Of a stretch of DNA of 13,031 nt, positions 1,354-11,852 are shown one piece after another. This DNA is from a virus, in the UHGV virus genome UHGV-0124295; one strand, 5' to 3'. Made by a program: the position numbers and the translations under genes. The notes under the pieces are model-generated. The model had not been told where the DNA came from. It made no database searches and worked only from the letters and a program-made list of their open reading frames with translations. Position 1 is the stretch's first letter. Each line of letters starts with the position of its first letter.

Positions 1354-1493
1354 ACGTCCTCCTTTTCCTGCGGTAGTGGTAACACCCCTGTTGGTGTTCT
1401 TTCACGCCGGAGACACCATCGATTCCAGTAAGGTTGATTTGGTCGGAAGCGGTTATCTTCTTTGCATTCACCGCACCGATAACATCGCATCAT
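1320..1493 (-). CDS. ninD: NinD-like small zinc-finger-type protein (57 aa)
   Basis: [60 protein letters not shown] 1493..1491 overlaps the ninC stop TGA 1492..1490. The track ORF 1320..1544 has an upstream extension into ninC that is rejected. Length and position match lambda ninD. Confidence 0.6.
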
Positions 1494-2362
1494 GCAGCTT
1501 CCCTCCCGAAGTCGAAATAAAGCTGCCCTCCAAATATTTCGCATGACTCAGAACAAGAGCCGGTATCGAATCTTTTAGCTCGTACCATGTCCTGATACAG
1601 GGCTTGATAATCATTTTCTGAATACATTTTCGCGATACCATCCAGCGACATTCTTCCTCGGTACATAATCTCCTTTGGTGTTTCCCGATGTCCGTCACGC
1701 ACATGCGATCCCGTGATGACCTCATTAAAAACACGCTGCAATCCCTCCTCATCTTTACAGGCAAGTCCGATTTTTTGCGTTGATTTTTTAATGCAGAATA
1801 TGCAGTTACCGAGATGTTCCGGTATTTGCAAATCGAATGGTTGTTGCTTCCACCATGCGAGGATATCTTCCTTCTCAAAGTCTGACAGTTCAGCAAGATA
1901 TCTGATTCCAGGCTTTGGCTTTAGCCGCTTCGGTTCATCAGCTCTGATGCCAATCCACGTGGTGTAATTCCCTCGCCCGAAATGGTCATCACAGTATTTG
2001 GTGAAGGGAACGAGTTTTAATCTGTCAGTGCAGAACGCGCCGCCGACGTATGGAGTGCCATATTTTTTTACCATATCGATAAATGGCTTCAGAACAGGCA
2101 GTCGCGTCTGAATATCCTTTGGTTCCCATACCGTATAACCATTTGGCTGCCCAAGCTCTGGGTTGATATCAACCTGCAATACGGTGAGCGGTATATCCCA
2201 GAACTTCACAACTTCCCTGACAAACCGATATGTCATTGGATGTTCACAACCTGTATCCATGAAAACGTAATGCACGTCTTCACCTGCCCGTCGCTTTTGC
2301 TCCATTAGCCAGAGCAAATATGCTGACGTCCTGCCACCGGAGAAACTAACGACATTTATCAT
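1490..2362 (-). CDS. ninC: NinC, PAPS-reductase-like/phosphoadenosine phosphosulfate reductase family protein (290 aa)
   Basis: Track ORF 1490..2422; the true start is the internal [18 protein letters not shown]... at 2362..2360, which overlaps the ninB stop (ATGA). From memory near-identical to lambda NinC. Confidence 0.85.
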
Positions 2363-2799
2363 GCAGCCCTGTCTCCCCATCGCGCTTTCCACTCCAGAGC
2401 CAGTCGCGCTTCGTCTGACCACTTAACGCCACGCTCTGTACCGAATGCCTGTATAAGCTCTAATAGCTCCGCAAATTCGCTTACACGCATCCTGCTGGTT
2501 GACTGGCCTATTACCACAAAGCCATTCCCGGCAAGGTTAGGAACAACATCCTGCTGCTTTAATGCTGCGGTAAACACACACTTCCAGCTTTCTGCATCCA
2601 GCCAGCGACCATGCCATTCAACCTGACGAGAGACGTCACCAAGGCAAGCCCAAAGCTTTCGATTCTGGTCTAAGCTGCGGTTGCGTTCCTGAATGGTTAC
2701 TACGATTGGTTTGGTTGGGTCTGGAAGGATTTGCTGTACCGCGTGAATAGCGTTTTGCTGATGTGCTGGAGATCGAATTTCAAAGGTTAGTTTTTTCAT
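2359..2799 (-). CDS. ninB: NinB/Orf recombination mediator (146 aa)
   Basis: MKKLTFEIRSPAHQQNAIHAVQQILPDPTKP... matches lambda NinB (Orf) from memory. RBS GAGGGA lies upstream of ATG 2799. Confidence 0.9.
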   Translation of the reverse strand: MKKLTFEIRSPAHQQNAIHAVQQILPDPTKPIVVTIQERNRSLDQNRKLWACLGDVSRQVEWHGRWLDAESWKCVFTAALKQQDVVPNLAGNGFVVIGQSTSRMRVSEFAELLELIQAFGTERGVKWSDEARLALEWKARWGDRAA

Positions 2800-6359: not shown

Positions 6360-7010
6360 ATGAAAACTCAATTGATGGGAGAGCGCATTCGCGCTCGGAG
6401 AAAAGAACTCAAGATCAGACAGGCCGCACTTGGAAAGATGGTCGGCGTGTCTAATGTTGCCATATCTCAGTGGGAACGCTCTGAGACAGAGCCAAATGGA
6501 GAGAATCTTCTCGCCCTGGCTAATGCGTTGAAGTGTTCCCCTGACTATCTGATGAAAGGAGAGGAAAGTCTTTCAAACATTGCCTATCACAGTAGGCATG
6601 ATCCAAGAGGGTCATACCCTCTGATTAGCTGGGTGAGCGCAGGATGCTGGATGGAAGCTGTAGAACCATATCATAAGCGTGCAATAGATAACTGGTACGA
6701 TACAACCGTAGACTGTTCAGAAGATTCGTTTTGGTTGGACGTGAAGGGAGACTCAATGACGGCTCCGGCCGGTCTCAGTATCCCTGAAGGAATGATAATA
6801 CTCGTCGATCCTGAAGTAGAGCCGCGTAACGGGAAACTGGTAGTTGCAAAGCTCGAAGGAGAAAACGAGGCAACTTTCAAGAAGTTAGTTATTGATGCAG
6901 GCAGGAAGTTTCTAAAACCACTTAACCCACAATATCCGATGATCGAGATCAACGGAAACTGCAAAATCATCGGCGTAGTTGTCGATGCAAAACTAGCAAA
7001 CCTTCCATAA
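6360..7010 (+). CDS. c2: Prophage repressor, P22 C2 / LexA-like S24 peptidase family
   Basis: 216 aa; N-terminal HTH (VGVSNVAISQWERSE), Ala-Gly autocleavage site (SAG) and C-terminal Ser/Lys peptidase fold (GDSM ... VVAKL). Resembles the P22 c2 repressor from memory. Confidence 0.88.
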   Translation: MKTQLMGERIRARRKELKIRQAALGKMVGVSNVAISQWERSETEPNGENLLALANALKCSPDYLMKGEESLSNIAYHSRHDPRGSYPLISWVSAGCWMEAVEPYHKRAIDNWYDTTVDCSEDSFWLDVKGDSMTAPAGLSIPEGMIILVDPEVEPRNGKLVVAKLEGENEATFKKLVIDAGRKFLKPLNPQYPMIEINGNCKIIGVVVDAKLANLP

Positions 7011-7033
7011 GGGGGCATTCGCCCCTTTTTTTA
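7011..7033 (+). terminator. Intrinsic terminator after c2
   Basis: GGGGC-ATTC-GCCCC hairpin followed by TTTTTTT immediately after the c2 stop. Confidence 0.6.
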
Positions 7034-7053
7034 TTTCCTTTAAAAATCAAAGC

Positions 7054-7129
7054 AAAACTTAAGTTACGAAAGAAAATTTAAGTTTTCTTCAAAAATACTC
7101 TTGACCATTAATTAAAGAGATCTTAAATT
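7054..7129 (+). promoter_or_regulatory. oL operators and pL promoter
   Basis: Operator-like 18-mers ATTAAAGAGATCTTAAAT (7111-7128), ATTTAAGTTTTCTTCAAA (7076-7093) and a CTTAAG-containing site near 7056-7073. -35 TTGACC (7101-7106), 17-nt spacer, -10 TAAATT (7124-7129). Confidence 0.55.
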
Positions 7130-7175
7130 TAAGCCATCAGCAGGACGCTGGAAGCCAAACGGAACAGATTGGCAG

Positions 7176-7217
7176 GCTCTTTAACATTGATGGGATTGTC
7201 CCGCCGAAATGCGGGAA
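7176..7217 (+). promoter_or_regulatory. nutL-like site (boxA GCTCTTTAACA plus boxB hairpin)
   Basis: GCTCTTTAACA (7176-7186), a 12-nt spacer, then TCCCGC-CGAAAT-GCGGGAA (7199-7217); same module as nutR but on the opposite strand. Confidence 0.6.
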
Positions 7218-7527
7218 CCAAAGAGTAGTTGGCTTTGGGGTGACGTGAAGTGCAGCTGCACGACGGCAACCGGAAGATAAGCACCCGGCGCGTCACCGCC
7301 AAAGTCAATTCCATAGGCGAAATGCAGCCGCCAAACACAGCCAATGCTGCACATGCAACAGGAGGATTTATGTGAATGCATAACTTCAAAACCGAGGTTA
7401 ATTAAATCTCTCGATCCGAGCATTGACCTATTAGGTGGCGAGATGCTCTTTCTGCCCCTCAGTTCGAGGGGCCAGAAACCACTTTGCAATCACTATCAAT
7501 TCCAAAGTTGTTTCATCGGAGGTCAAC

Positions 7528-7800
7528 ATGACAGTAGTCATTACATATCTGGCTGACGATAACACCAGAAATCGCCGCAGAGCACGCAGACAGGCTCAAC
7601 GTGAACAGGCAATGCAAGAACAGCGACTGGCGCGAAAGATTGCGCTAAAGCTCTCTGGTTGCGTCAGAGCAGATAAAGCAGCATCACTCGGAAGCCTTCG
7701 CTGCAAGAAGGCAGATGAATGCAGCGGAAGTATTTGCCTGCCAAACGTAGCCATTTACACGGCAGGCTACCGGAAATCAAAACAACTGACGGCGAGGTAA
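7528..7800 (+). CDS. N: N-like transcription antitermination protein (P22 gp24-like)
   Basis: Track ORF 7435..7800; the real start is ATG 7528 with RBS GGAGGT (7518-7523). MTVVITYLADDNTRNRRRARRQAQREQAM... has an arginine-rich motif; the C-terminal ...GYRKSKQLTAR resembles P22 gp24 from memory. Confidence 0.72.
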   Translation: MTVVITYLADDNTRNRRRARRQAQREQAMQEQRLARKIALKLSGCVRADKAASLGSLRCKKADECSGSICLPNVAIYTAGYRKSKQLTAR

Positions 7801-7803
7801 GTG

Positions 7804-8028
7804 ATGAATCAGACATACATTCCATCATGCTTGAGAAATCTGCCAAAGCAGAAAGCAAAGCCCCGCAAGCAAGCCATAAAGGACGCTAAGGCAGAGGTTA
7901 TTGATCAAGCAATACAATTGCTCAGGGAGGAGTTAAGAAGTGGCAAGCTAGAAGGAATGATGATGCCCTATCAGCGCGGATATCTATCGGCGATTAGTAA
8001 GTTGGAAGTATTGAAGAGTGAATTATGA
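7804..8028 (+). CDS. Hypothetical basic helical protein (74 aa), ral/gene-17 slot
   Basis: ATG 7804 with RBS GAGG (7794-7797); the track start at 7801 is a GTG. No recognisable family. Confidence 0.5.
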   Translation: MNQTYIPSCLRNLPKQKAKPRKQAIKDAKAEVIDQAIQLLREELRSGKLEGMMMPYQRGYLSAISKLEVLKSEL

Positions 8029-8090
8029 GCTATCTGGAATTTCCGGATGGTTCATTGTTTTGGCAGCAAACCACTTATTTGAGGTGAGAT

Positions 8091-8561
8091 ATGACAATAT
8101 CATGGAGCGTACCTTTTCCTGAATCAGAAACTGAACATGATGGAATGCCTGTTTTCTGGAGATTCCAGGCGACAGTTGAAGAAGATGGAATCAAAATATT
8201 CGCACTTCAATATATAGCTTTTCATCAGACAGAGCATTATGCATGGTTGGTTCCTGCGCATTGGATTGTTAATTTTAAACCAGCACCAAATCAGTGGTTA
8301 CAGGAATGGAAACAAAGGAGAAATAGATATGCAATTAAGAAAGTAGCAAAAAATGCAGAAAGATCTTTTGCATTCCCAACGAAGAAACTTGCCATTGAGA
8401 GTTTATTGCGCCGGAAGAAATACCATTTAATGAGAATCAAACAAGATTTGGCTGTTGTATCAACTCTTGTTGATGGGATGAAGAATATTGATACATCAAC
8501 ACCAGATATTGAATATAACTTTGGACACAACCAAGAAACAGAAAATTGGGTATTTTATTAG
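8091..8561 (+). CDS. Hypothetical protein (156 aa), low-GC moron
   Basis: Strong RBS GAGGTGAG before ATG 8091. Visibly AT-rich relative to flanking phage DNA. No recognisable motifs and no obvious transmembrane segment. Confidence 0.6.
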   Translation: MTISWSVPFPESETEHDGMPVFWRFQATVEEDGIKIFALQYIAFHQTEHYAWLVPAHWIVNFKPAPNQWLQEWKQRRNRYAIKKVAKNAERSFAFPTKKLAIESLLRRKKYHLMRIKQDLAVVSTLVDGMKNIDTSTPDIEYNFGHNQETENWVFY

Positions 8562-8665
8562 TACGAATAAGCACTGTGTATTCATTCCAACGAGTGAATA
8601 CACGGAGCAATGTCGCTCGTAACTAAACAGGAGCCGACTTGTTCTGATTATTTGAAATCTTCTTT

Positions 8666-8691
8666 GCCCTCCTATGTGAGGGCGATTTTTT
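8666..8691 (+). terminator. Intrinsic terminator (tL-like) after the 156-aa ORF
   Basis: GCCCTC-CTATGT-GAGGGC hairpin followed by GATTTTTT. Confidence 0.6.
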
Positions 8692-8704
8692 GACGGAGTG
8701 AACG

Positions 8705-8953
8705 ATGATAAAAACTGATTATCCTGCAGAACTTAAACAAAAAGTAATAACAGCAATTAAATGCTCTTTTATCTCATGCCGTACAGATGAAGAACGATAT
8801 GTCGTTGAGTGTGCAATTGTCGAGTTTCTCACAGCGATGGAATTTACCGCTGCAGAATCAATAGATGTATTAAAGCAATCAGACGGAAATGATATTGAAA
8901 CGGATGATGTTATTGACCGACTAATAAAATCATTCGAAGAAGAAATAGAGTAG
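8705..8953 (+). CDS. Hypothetical small acidic protein (82 aa)
   Basis: RBS GGAG 6 nt before ATG 8705. AT-rich coding sequence; highly acidic C-terminus (DGNDIETDDVIDRLIKSFEEEIE). Confidence 0.55.
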   Translation: MIKTDYPAELKQKVITAIKCSFISCRTDEERYVVECAIVEFLTAMEFTAAESIDVLKQSDGNDIETDDVIDRLIKSFEEEIE

Positions 8954-9036
8954 CCGCCTGAGCGCGGCTTTACCGCATACCAATAATGCTTCACGAGAGG
9001 CATTTTCGTTATGCAATCAAATATAAGGAGTTACCC

Positions 9037-9171
9037 ATGATGCACTTTCAGCTCGCGGGTAGCGGCGTCATGTCCGCTTTCTACCCGCACGAATCTGAAT
9101 TATCACGCCGAGTTAAACAATTAATCAGAGCAGCAAAGAAACAACTGGAGGCGTTATGCGCAATGAAATAG
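9037..9171 (+). CDS. cIII: CIII-like protein (FtsH inhibitor, stabilises CII)
   Basis: MMHFQLAGSGVMSAFYPHESELSRRVKQLIRAAKKQLEALCAMK. RBS AAGGAG 6 nt upstream. The core helix resembles lambda CIII (ESLLERITRKLRDGWKRLIDIL) from memory. The track ORF 8986..9171 has an upstream extension that is rejected. Confidence 0.65.
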   Translation: MMHFQLAGSGVMSAFYPHESELSRRVKQLIRAAKKQLEALCAMK

Positions 9172-9308
9172 CCATCAATCACCAGATGCTTCGTGCAGCA
9201 CAGAACAAAGCAGTAATAGCCAGATTTATTGGTGATTCCAAAATGTGGCTTGAAGCAAATAAAGCGATGAAATCAGCTATCAACCTTCCGTGGTATCGCA
9301 GGAAATGA
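9156..9308 (+). CDS. kil: Kil-like small protein (50 aa)
   Basis: Not in the ORF track; MRNEIAINHQMLRAAQNKAVIARFIGDSKMWLEANKAMKSAINLPWYRRK. RBS GGAGG (9147-9151). Overlaps the cIII 3' end as kil does in lambda; the IA.FIGD.KM motif resembles lambda Kil from memory. Confidence 0.5.
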   Translation: MRNEIAINHQMLRAAQNKAVIARFIGDSKMWLEANKAMKSAINLPWYRRK

Positions 9309-9383
9309 GTTTTACAGATAACTGGTCAGACGAAGAATTCATTCGTCAGATGAAAGAATTAATCGGTAACGAAGGAGATATTC

Positions 9384-9554
9384 ATGTCACTTGCAACCAC
9401 AGTGAAGGAGAGCAAGTTACAGAGACGCATGTACACGCAGAAAGCTCTCTGGTATCGCCATAATGGTGACCGCGAAGGAATGCGGGTATGCCTTAATTTG
9501 TCCAGAGTCGAAGTATTAAACCAGCGTTATTTCCTTGGGCCATGTCCATTCTGA
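9384..9554 (+). CDS. Hypothetical small protein (56 aa)
   Basis: ATG 9384 with RBS AAGGAG (9372-9377); MSLATTVKESKLQRRMYTQKALWYRHNGDREGMRVCLNLSRVEVLNQRYFLGPCPF. Ends 8 nt before the Rad52-like gene. An alternative overlapping ORF 9305..9463 exists in another frame. Confidence 0.35.
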   Translation: MSLATTVKESKLQRRMYTQKALWYRHNGDREGMRVCLNLSRVEVLNQRYFLGPCPF

Positions 9555-9562
9555 GGTGAATT

Positions 9563-10270
9563 ATGGATTTGAATAAATTCGATGAGCCATTCGGCCCTGA
9601 AGATATCGAATGGCGAATACAGCAAAGCGGTAAAACACGCGATGGCAAGGTGTGGGCTATGGTGCTGGCTTATGTAACGAACCGGGCAATCATGAAACGC
9701 CTGGACGATGTTTGCGGCAAAGCAGGATGGCGCAATGAATACCGCGATATTCCCAACAACGGCGGCGTTGAATGCGGCATATCAATAAAGATTGATTCCG
9801 AATGGGTAACCAAATGGGATGCTGCTGAAAACACGCAGGTAGAAGCCGTCAAAGGTGGTCGTTCCGGTGCAATGAAGCGCGCTGCCGTTCAGTGGGGAAT
9901 CGGTCGGTATCTGTATAACCTTGAGGAAGGTTTCGCACAAACATCTCTCGATAAAAAGCAGGGGTGGCACAGGGCAAAACTGAAGGATGGAACAGGATTT
10001 TACTGGCTCCCTCCATCGCTGCCGGGATGGGCAATCCCAGCATCAGATAACAAACCATCACCAGAAAATACCAACCAGAAATCTCCATCGGTTGACTGCG
10101 AACAAATCCTGAAAGACTTCAGCGATTATGCATCAACAGAAACTGACAAGAAAAAACTCATCGAGCGTTATCAGCGTGACTGGCAATTAATGGCTGGCAA
10201 CGAGGAGGCGCAGGCTAAATGCGTTCAGGTAATGAACATCAGAGTTAACGAACTAAAACAGGCGGCATAA
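9563..10270 (+). CDS. Rad52/Rad22-family single-strand annealing protein (Sak/Erf-position recombinase)
   Basis: 235 aa; motifs AYVTNRAIMKRLDDVCGKAGW and GAMKRAAVQWGIGRYLYNL typical of the Rad52 N-terminal annealing domain. RBS GAGGTG. Sits immediately upstream of ssb. Confidence 0.7.
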   Translation: MDLNKFDEPFGPEDIEWRIQQSGKTRDGKVWAMVLAYVTNRAIMKRLDDVCGKAGWRNEYRDIPNNGGVECGISIKIDSEWVTKWDAAENTQVEAVKGGRSGAMKRAAVQWGIGRYLYNLEEGFAQTSLDKKQGWHRAKLKDGTGFYWLPPSLPGWAIPASDNKPSPENTNQKSPSVDCEQILKDFSDYASTETDKKKLIERYQRDWQLMAGNEEAQAKCVQVMNIRVNELKQAA

Positions 10271-10790: not shown

Positions 10791-11087
10791 ATGCCAGCGC
10801 CTCTGTATGGTGCGGATGACCCGCGCCGCTGTTCCGGCAATTCCGTATCGGAGGTGCTGGATAAATTCAGAAAAAACTACGACCGGATAATGTCGCTACC
10901 GCAGGAAACGAAAGAGGAAAAGGAATTTCGCCACTGTATATGGCTTGCAGAGAAAGAAGAACGCGAGCGAATTTACCAGACATCAATCCGACCATTCCGT
11001 AAAGCCACATATACCCACTTCCCTGAATATATCGACCCGCGCCTGCGTAATTACCGCTCACGCTATGGCGCTATCAGTAATGACTGA
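10791..11087 (+). CDS. Hypothetical protein (98 aa)
   Basis: RBS GGAGA 5 nt before ATG 10791; same strand and tightly packed with neighbours. Confidence 0.5.
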
Positions 11088-11097
11088 GGAATTTACC

Positions 11098-11265
11098 ATG
11101 AGAGGACTTGCATACAATCCCGGAATTCTTCCGGCAGAAATGATTATTCGTCAACGCGTAAAGCCAATGCCATCGAGAGAGGAATTGCTTAAGAGAAATA
11201 GTTTCGGTTCTGTTAATGACAACAAATATCTGAATGCAATGTGGCGCAAAGGAGGCAAGCAGTGA
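11098..11265 (+). CDS. Hypothetical small protein (55 aa)
   Basis: ATG 11098 with RBS GAGGA 7 nt upstream; it is the 3' part of track ORF 10945..11265, whose 5' part overlaps the previous gene and is rejected. Confidence 0.4.
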
Positions 11266-11852
11266 GCAACATCGACAAACAGGCGCAGCGTAAAGCAAAG
11301 GTAATCACAAAGGAATTTGTTGAGGAACACCTTCACTACGATGGGAAGGATTTTTTCTGGAAGAAGCGCGAACCAAGTTCGTTTTCTGACAGCCGCACAT
11401 GCAAGGTTTGGAATACTCGAATTGCAGGGAAGCGGGCCGGAGGAATCAGCGCTCAAGGTTATGTAGAAATTCAAATCAAAGGGAGTCGATATAAGGCTCA
11501 TAGATTAGCGTGGTGTCTTGTTCATGGCGATATACCAACAGACATGCAGGTTGATCACATTAACCACGACCGAACTGATAACCGAATAGAGAATCTGCGC
11601 CTTGTTGATAATCAGGGAAACCAAAAGAACTCTTCGATACGAAAGGACAACATTGGAGGCTGCACAGGTGTTACCTGGAATCCTAGCCATAAAAGATGGA
11701 TTGCCTACATACGCGAAAATGGTAAGCACAAGCACATTGGTAGCTTCATTAAATTCTCTGATGCTGTAAGAGCAAGAGAGGAAGCTCAGGCAAGGCTTGG
11801 ATTCCACATGAATCACGGCGCCGCTGGCATTCGCATCAAAGGAGGTGAGTAA
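11262..11852 (+). CDS. HNH endonuclease with C-terminal AP2-type DNA-binding domain
   Basis: HNH_3-like motif [16 protein letters not shown]...[27 protein letters not shown] and AP2-like [40 protein letters not shown]. Probable GTG start at 11262 after RBS GGAGG; the track start is GTG 11241. Confidence 0.78.

Follow-up and report, generated by a model that had tools for sequence, protein, structure and literature searches.

Between the antiterminator gene N and cIII, the early-left operon of lambdoid phages, transcribed from pL, contains a variable region in which well-known phages carry different genes. Lambda and P22 both hold sieB-type morons in this shared region, AT-rich accessory genes of the early-left operon that in these two phages and in HK446 lie on the opposite strand with a promoter of their own. 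Other described occupants include lambda ral, the small early gene ea10 of lambda and 933W, and gene 17 of P22, which the P22 RefSeq record annotates as permitting growth on Fels-2 lysogens. The region also has a non-coding component. In lambda, the ral-ea10 spacer encodes an Hfq-dependent small RNA (sRNA), LPR1/PreS, of ~88 nucleotides (nt), which is processed to ~68 nt, has the terminator tL2a as its 3' end and is made in the lytic cycle (10.1101/2024.10.31.621285). PreS pairs upstream of the dnaN start codon, exposes the ribosome-binding site and raises DnaN, and it represses alaS; its loss lowers phage DNA replication and yield 2-4-fold (10.1101/2024.10.31.621285). Here we describe the corresponding region of the virus genome UHGV-0124295, positions 7801-8953 of a stretch of 13,031 nt. 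This whole stretch is called the window below; all coordinates refer to it and to its plus strand unless stated.

Judged by its sequence, the window covers the early region of a lambdoid prophage of the P22 type, with CUS-3 closest in backbone; the nearest backbones, those of CUS-3, JEP4 and HF4s, each cover 48-52% of the window at ~97% identity. An earlier note on this DNA had singled out 7801-8953, a low-GC block of three open reading frames (ORFs) in the pL operon, as the most likely place in the window for an undescribed defence or counter-defence system. The reading favoured here, at a probability of about 0.72, is that the block consists of three single-gene accessory cassettes and one conserved non-coding element within the pL operon of this prophage. 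What the sequence shows is the operon position, the cassette structure and a spacer that corresponds to lambda PreS/tL2a. The order runs from N through the ORF1 cassette, a short linker (linker A), the ORF2 cassette, a 121-base-pair (bp) PreS/tL2a linker and a variable slot, here filled by ORF3, to the cIII leader. The elements of the block and its immediate flanks are these:

7528..7800, plus strand: N-like antiterminator, 90 amino acids (aa) (Pfam N_peptide, E=6.8e-14; phrog_271)
7801-8028 from a GTG, or 7804..8028 from the likely ATG at 7804, plus strand: ORF1, 74 aa (ORF listing)
8025..8055, plus strand: putative weak hairpin of terminator-like form where the ORF1 cassette ends (terminator scan)
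8059..8093, 35 bp, plus strand: linker A, carrying a Shine-Dalgarno sequence and an ATG, conserved upstream of differing cassettes
8091..8561, plus strand: ORF2, 156 aa, isoelectric point (pI) 8.8 (ORF listing)
8576..8603, plus strand: perfect 12-bp hairpin just 5' of the PreS homologue (RNA fold)
8604..8691, plus strand: PreS/LPR1 homologue, ~88 nt, ending in a tL2a-type terminator (identity to lambda; 5' end placed from the lambda size)
8705..8953, plus strand: ORF3, 82 aa, pI 4.3, net charge -11.5 (ORF listing)
8953..9013, plus strand: cIII-leader linker closing the ORF3 slot, sharing 88.7-90.3% identity with the spacer between ea10 and cIII in lambda and 933W
9037..9171, plus strand: cIII, 44 aa (Pfam cIII, E=4.6e-30)
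9156-9308, plus strand: kil (Pfam Kil)

Pfam matches to N_peptide, cIII and Kil and a pL-like promoter confirm that the block belongs to the pL operon and is flanked by N and cIII, and the sizes and coordinates that the earlier note gave for the three ORFs (74, 156 and 82 aa) agree with the ORF listing. N has a counterpart of equal length in phage ECP1 (gp60), with DNA 97.8% identical across 7513-8093. The start of ORF1 is likely to be the ATG at 7804, four bases past the N stop codon, which gives the same 74 aa as ECP1 gp59. On comparative grounds all three ORFs are genuine genes, with homologues in several genera that keep invariant residues and with mostly synonymous change, 33 of 47 codon changes relative to close relatives being synonymous. 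The minus-strand ORFs in the block, none of which matches any PHROG, were rejected as antisense artefacts. The predicted dip in G+C content (GC) is also real: windowed GC is 0.384 across 7801-8953 against a window mean of 0.469 (standard deviation 0.032, windows of the same size). This dip is the deepest in the window, with the block ranking 27th lowest among 11,879 same-size windows and the minimum starting at 7898. It is caused by ORF2 (GC 0.361; GC at third codon positions, GC3, 0.28) and ORF3 (0.345; GC3 0.23), whose base composition departs from that of the flanks, as is typical of morons; ORF1 is only mildly low (0.431), and its GC3 of 0.48 is not low.

A mosaic map, in which the window was aligned to eleven annotated loci, gives the following arrangements:

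ECP1: matches 7513-8093 (N, ORF1) and 8570-9600 (spacer, ORF3, cIII, kil), with a peptide identical to lambda orf28 instead of ORF2
HK97: matches 8059-8691 (ORF2 and spacer), followed directly by the cIII leader; the ORF3 slot is empty and there is no ORF1
933W: matches 8059-8691 (ORF2 and spacer), with ea10 in the ORF3 slot; no ORF1
H-19B: ORF2 (as an unannotated ORF) and spacer, then a P22-type gene 17 in place of 8709-8936
phi296: N, ORF1, an orf28-like peptide, a true Ral, ORF2
HK446: N, a minus-strand sieB-like gene, spacer, ORF3
STEC384: N, DUF7167, ORF1, Nmad5, ORF2, a 138-aa ORF

The breakpoints between these arrangements lie in three conserved linkers, at 8059-8093, 8571-8691 and 8953-9013 (the cIII leader). 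Linker A precedes ORF2 in HK97, 933W and H-19B, the lambda-orf28-identical peptide in ECP1 and the DUF7167 ORF in STEC384, and it probably marks a boundary at which cassettes are exchanged by homologous recombination; the putative weak hairpin at 8025..8055 sits just 5' of the mosaic junction at 8059. By the same sequence comparison, the spacer at 8571-8691 doubles as a recombination linker. Downstream of it, the cIII-proximal slot contains ORF3, gp17, ea10, a 138-aa ORF or nothing, depending on the phage. ORF2 directly follows N in HK97, 933W and H-19B, and the ORF1 cassette intervenes in the window phage. In STEC384 (locus 2052-2675) a putative nucleotide-modification gene of the Nmad5 family is inserted between ORF1 and ORF2, showing that the linker upstream of ORF2 takes larger cargo. 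In other genera the position varies: ORF2 homologues adjoin xis-int in Pectobacterium and Brenneria prophages; a genome scan placed an ORF3 homologue three genes past N at one locus in an Erwinia prophage. The description of the block as AT-rich, variable cargo in a hypervariable slot is thus borne out by the GC dip, by cassette exchange across relatives and by a gene-neighbourhood survey in which relatives hold sieB, ral, orf28, ea10, gene 17, Nmad5, DUF7167 and others.

The idea that a single AT-rich block was acquired whose three ORFs work together as one undescribed system of defence or counter-defence draws on their adjacency and common orientation in a variable slot, on the very low GC3 of both ORF2 and ORF3 and on contiguous pairs found in some E. 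coli genomes. Its difficulty is that the genes do not travel together. Prevalence was determined by Megablast against 5,426 complete E. coli genomes, with 50,697 records on the phage side. Matches to ORF1, ORF2 and ORF3 occur in 149, 598 and 58 of the E. coli genomes, respectively, a tenfold spread, and the 121-bp spacer alone is matched in 2,234. The triple is found in none of the E. coli genomes and none of the phage records, and in no E. coli genome is at least 80% of 7804-8953 matched at one place. The contiguous pairs are ORF1 with ORF2, in E. coli E89 and T28R, and ORF2 with ORF3, in C41 and AJ5; since both pair arrangements exist, the window is a recombinant of them. Moreover, well-studied phages carry each ORF without the others, the third codon positions of ORF1 are not AT-rich, and the sRNA/terminator linker separating ORF2 from ORF3 is also present in phages without these ORFs. 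Comparison of the three proteins with the defence models of PADLOC-DB 2.0 gave best E values of 0.016-0.018 over 14-45 residues, which is the level of chance. A single system is largely refuted by this distribution already, and we regard it as very improbable. Independent exchange of the cassettes at conserved linkers argues rather for three separate functions.

Other evidence concerns the spacer between ORF2 and ORF3. The intrinsic terminator that the earlier note had placed there is present, both the terminator scan and the RNA fold giving a stem-loop at 8664-8685 with 8 pairs followed by T6 up to 8691. As an unexplained feature it does not survive, being the known lambda tL2a/PreS terminator. 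Positions 8571-8691 share 97.5% identity with lambda 33,925-34,045, the ral-ea10 spacer, which exceeds the identity of at least 92% to lambda LPR1 that has been used to define LPR1 conservation (10.1101/2024.10.31.621285). Because of this near-identity, the flagged terminator is best read as part of a known, widely conserved regulatory RNA. The differences from lambda amount to three substitutions and no gaps, all within the putative 88 nt: one at 8653 (G to T) and two in the terminator loop. Just upstream, the hairpin at 8576..8603 is invariant in lambda, HK97, 933W, ECP1, HK446 and H-19B. The 150-nt spacer between the two ORFs folds with a z-score of -4.3, and its GC-rich 3' hairpin with a poly-U tail has the form of a Rho-independent terminator and Hfq-binding module.

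An unpaired stretch at 8636-8664 is predicted to pair with positions -46..-11 of the E. coli dnaN leader at -28.8 kcal/mol, an energy that none of 1000 shuffled sequences reached (mean -13.0, standard deviation 2.7). The lambda allele gives an equal energy, and the pairing is thus predicted in the window despite the G-to-T change at 8653. An Rfam search over 6900-9600 found no family; PreS is not in Rfam. The likeness to lambda therefore extends from the hairpin through the GC-rich terminator stem and poly-U to the predicted dnaN pairing and the place it takes in the pL operon, ahead of the cIII-proximal slot. What differs is the setting, as the element is flanked by ral and ea10 in lambda and by ORF2 and ORF3 in the window phage. 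The lytic 88/68-nt Hfq-bound transcript and the activation of DnaN have been shown for lambda only.

Regulatory signals upstream of N complete the operon context:

7101..7129, plus strand: pL-like early-left promoter, TTGACC-17-TAAATT (promoter scan)
7176..7216, plus strand: nutL-like site, with a boxA-like element GCTCTTTAACA at 7176-7186 and a boxB-like hairpin at 7199-7216 (read from sequence)

The promoter aligns with the annotated pL of P22, to which window positions 7002-7192 are 82.5% identical. The boxA-like element coincides in part with the annotated nutL boxA of P22, and 7132-7309 is 100% identical to ECP1, so that a nutL function may be ascribed to 7176..7216. A stretch of 203 bp in the pL leader between nutL and N (7310-7512) is missing from ECP1, C41, STEC384 and phi296, where 7309 is joined to 7513; it is present in E. 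coli AJ5 and holds a GC-rich hairpin, GCCCCTCAGTTCGAGGGGC, at ~7464-7482.

These signals bear on a further explanation, in which one or more of the ORFs would be a moron that the lysogen expresses for defence or superinfection exclusion, protecting the host, like sieB of lambda and P22. In its favour, ORF2 and ORF3 share the AT-richness of typical morons, an intrinsic terminator follows ORF2, and sieB is found in this region in lambda, P22 and HK446; O26 and related strains have a "superinfection exclusion protein" there. The expected promoter is missing, however: a consensus scan predicted no plus-strand sigma-70-like promoter in 7129-9311, so that the ORFs should be repressed along with pL in the lysogen. 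All three ORFs are co-oriented with pL, unlike sieB. The terminator after ORF2 belongs to the PreS/tL2a linker, which is present in phages without ORF2, and none of the proteins matches a PADLOC model. In addition, ORF1 and ORF3 have relatives in siphophages that lack an N-cIII context, where lysogen protection is unlikely. A lysogen-expressed moron is consequently quite improbable.

In the favoured reading of separate accessory cassettes, ORF1-3 would instead be silent in the lysogen, because no internal sigma-70-type promoter is predicted, and their early transcription, during infection or induction, would start at pL. ORF1 and ORF2 come before tL2a, and N-mediated read-through would be needed for the genes past this terminator, ORF3, cIII and kil. 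The spacer would yield PreS, and pairing of this RNA with the dnaN leader would allow more translation of the sliding clamp, supporting lytic replication, a course suggested by its near-identity to lambda.

None of the three ORFs is undescribed as sequence, since they are near-identical to HK97 gp45 and 933W L0079 (ORF2), ECP1 gp59 (ORF1) and ECP1 gp57 and HK446_036 (ORF3). The earlier statement that they belong to no recognisable family stands for Pfam, NCBIfam and PADLOC and falls for PHROGs, in which all three have full-length matches: ORF1 in phrog 5305 (E=4.8e-38), ORF2 in 1636 (E=1.5e-111) and ORF3 in 14587 (E=2.2e-48). Comparison with Pfam and NCBIfam gave nothing significant, and Pfam scans of individual members of the three family alignments gave chance matches only (zf-H2C2, CaMBD, DUF366). 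Sequence searches of the PDB with profiles of all three families found no match. Word-indexed homologue searches with the three ORFs yielded only "hypothetical" names, and a literature search that included full texts and the supplements of the accessory-gene screen of Silas et al. found nothing on these proteins.

ORF1 is a basic protein (pI 9.7) that is 100% identical in ECP1 gp59 (PHROG 5305), mEpX2, mEp213 and phi296, with a matching position relative to N and cIII in ECP1. Erwinia, Vibrio and Pseudomonas phages have relatives at 35-55% identity, and so do Salmonella and E. coli phages in which the N-cIII context is lacking. It is probably a helical protein of 74 aa. DUF7446 was rejected as a domain of this family, the match lying in the chimeric C-terminus of one relative. 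ORF2 is 98.7% identical to HK97 gp45 and 99.4% identical to 933W L0079 (PHROG 1636) across all 156 aa, and in both phages, as here, the PreS/tL2a linker directly follows the gene. More distant relatives, at 25-30% identity, are found in Vibrio, Pantoea and Klebsiella phages; a Pfam scan of those from Vibrio and Pantoea phages gave no match. The literature yielded no reported function for any member of the HK97 gp45/933W L0079 family. With low confidence, ORF2 may comprise an N-terminal beta-sheet, a conserved basic segment and a long helix, and ORF1 and ORF2 are putative early host-takeover or nucleic-acid-binding factors, again at low confidence. Neither of them replaces Ral, because a true Ral coexists with both in phi296.

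ORF3 is the protein for which existing databases do offer a function. It is 100% identical to ECP1 gp57 and to HK446_036 (PHROG 14587), which share its position relative to N and cIII; gp57 (ECP1 locus 2423-2671) is labelled "antirestriction protein ral" in GenBank, and PHROG 14587 is labelled "anti-restriction protein". The label has spread across ~100 phage records of the ORF3 family, including records from Salmonella and Klebsiella phages. An exhaustive HMMER search placed only 17 representatives in the family. In Salmonella Skatevirus and Klebsiella siphophages, relatives at ~40% identity stand first in a rightward cluster, with ParB-like genes downstream and, in the Klebsiella phage VLCpiS13f, a DNA-methyltransferase gene as well.

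If these labels were taken at face value, ORF3 would be a restriction-alleviation protein, either an analogue of Ral or another anti-restriction protein. Beyond the labels themselves, this possibility is favoured by its small size and strong acidity, as in many anti-restriction proteins, by the methyltransferase gene in the cluster that the VLCpiS13f homologue heads, and by the lack of a true ral in the window. Homology gives the labels no support. The Ral profile (PF11058) matched none of ORF1-3 at E<=1, with lambda Ral as control at 1.6e-48, and BLASTP and hhalign were likewise null. Lambda Ral itself differs in being basic and encoded upstream of the PreS linker. A search for experimental support for the anti-restriction label of the ORF3 family found none. 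As judged from sequence the label is unsupported, and we consider an anti-restriction function of ORF3 rather unlikely.

ORF3 lies immediately upstream of the cIII leader, as gene 17 does, and in H-19B gene 17 replaces 8709-8936 between the same flanks. The gene 17 product of P22 and H-19B is likewise small and strongly acidic (pI 4.05 against 4.27 for ORF3); it has 103 aa against the 82 aa of ORF3 and no sequence relationship to it. The GP17 profile (PF17420) matched none of the three ORFs (control P22 gp17, 1.2e-58), BLASTP was null and hhalign gave ~0.1% for ORF3. Homology to Ral or gp17 would have counted against the proposal of the earlier note, and none of the three ORFs is homologous to either, so that a counter-defence role may still apply. 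Ea10 (DUF2528, PF10800) is another small early protein of the N-cIII region and occupies the ORF3 slot in lambda and 933W; its profile also matched none of ORF1-3 (control 1.8e-47; BLASTP null; hhalign 0.11%). ORF3 is predicted to form a four-helix bundle, with a predicted local distance difference test (pLDDT) score of 89, and a Foldseek search of BFVD with this model returned only its own family. Given its charge, its size, its leading position in the siphophage cluster and the slot it shares with gp17, ORF3 is most likely, with low confidence, a stoichiometric binder and inhibitor of an anti-phage protein encoded by the host or a prophage, or of another host protein. The role annotated for P22 gene 17 on Fels-2 lysogens is of the counter-exclusion type envisaged here. 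A tentative extension, possible rather than probable, is that the ORF3 family of acidic four-helix bundles of ~75-90 aa are early counter-defence inhibitors and that the PreS-to-cIII slot holds an allelic series of anti-defence genes.

Several points weigh against reading the block as independent accessory cassettes with roles of this kind. Neither experiment nor homology ties any of the three proteins to a function, and a slot shared with gp17 or ea10 does not imply a shared function; the hhalign values for a relationship are ~0.1%. The promoter scan sees consensus sigma-70 sites only, so that weak promoters active in the lysogen are possible. The contiguous pairs of ORF1 with ORF2 and of ORF2 with ORF3 leave room for pairwise cooperation, and the 5' end of PreS in the window phage is placed from the lambda size rather than mapped. 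An early counter-defence or host-takeover role for the three proteins is therefore offered as a best guess, for which ORF3 makes the strongest case.

Around the block, the remainder of the window contains the genes of a lambdoid early region together with some less usual cargo:

right-operon side, minus strand: NinG, NinX, a PAPS-reductase-domain protein, NinB, a DnaB-type helicase, an O-like replication protein, cII and cro
6360-7010, plus strand: P22 c2-like repressor, with its own terminator at 7009-7028
downstream of kil, plus strand: a Rad52-type annealing protein, SSB, Abc2 and an HNH-AP2 endonuclease

The PAPS-reductase-domain protein (1490-2422, minus strand, 310 aa) lies in the nin region between NinB and NinX and may have a part in DNA or nucleotide modification. 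On the plus strand, kil is followed, ahead of the annealing-protein gene, by two small overlapping ORFs (57 and 56 aa) at 9290-9554. They occupy the positions of P22 arf and HK97 gp42/42.1, and the PHROGs that they match, 2123 and 1723, both have the label "recombinase". The early-left operon also includes, directly behind abc2 (10791-11087, Pfam Anti-RecBCD_p2), a free-standing homing-type endonuclease gene with HNH_3 and AP2 domains (11241-11852, plus strand).

To a specialist in lambdoid phages the block is unsurprising: it is ordinary, already catalogued mosaic cargo, and its PreS element is already described. As found, it matters little, consisting of hypothetical proteins of well-known phages. 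What the map adds is a set of clean cassette boundaries in the N-cIII region and of true alternatives at one slot, which provides a rational shortlist for counter-defence screens. It also flags an unsupported "ral/anti-restriction" annotation that is now spreading through PHROG-based pipelines. ORF2, which directly follows N in 933W-type Shiga-toxin phages and occurs in ~11% of complete E. coli genomes, is a reasonable target for study. If the tentative view of the ORF3 family were correct, each allele at the PreS-to-cIII slot would aim at a different host or prophage barrier, and such a family of inhibitors would be common to temperate lambdoid phages and to the siphophages of Salmonella and Klebsiella.

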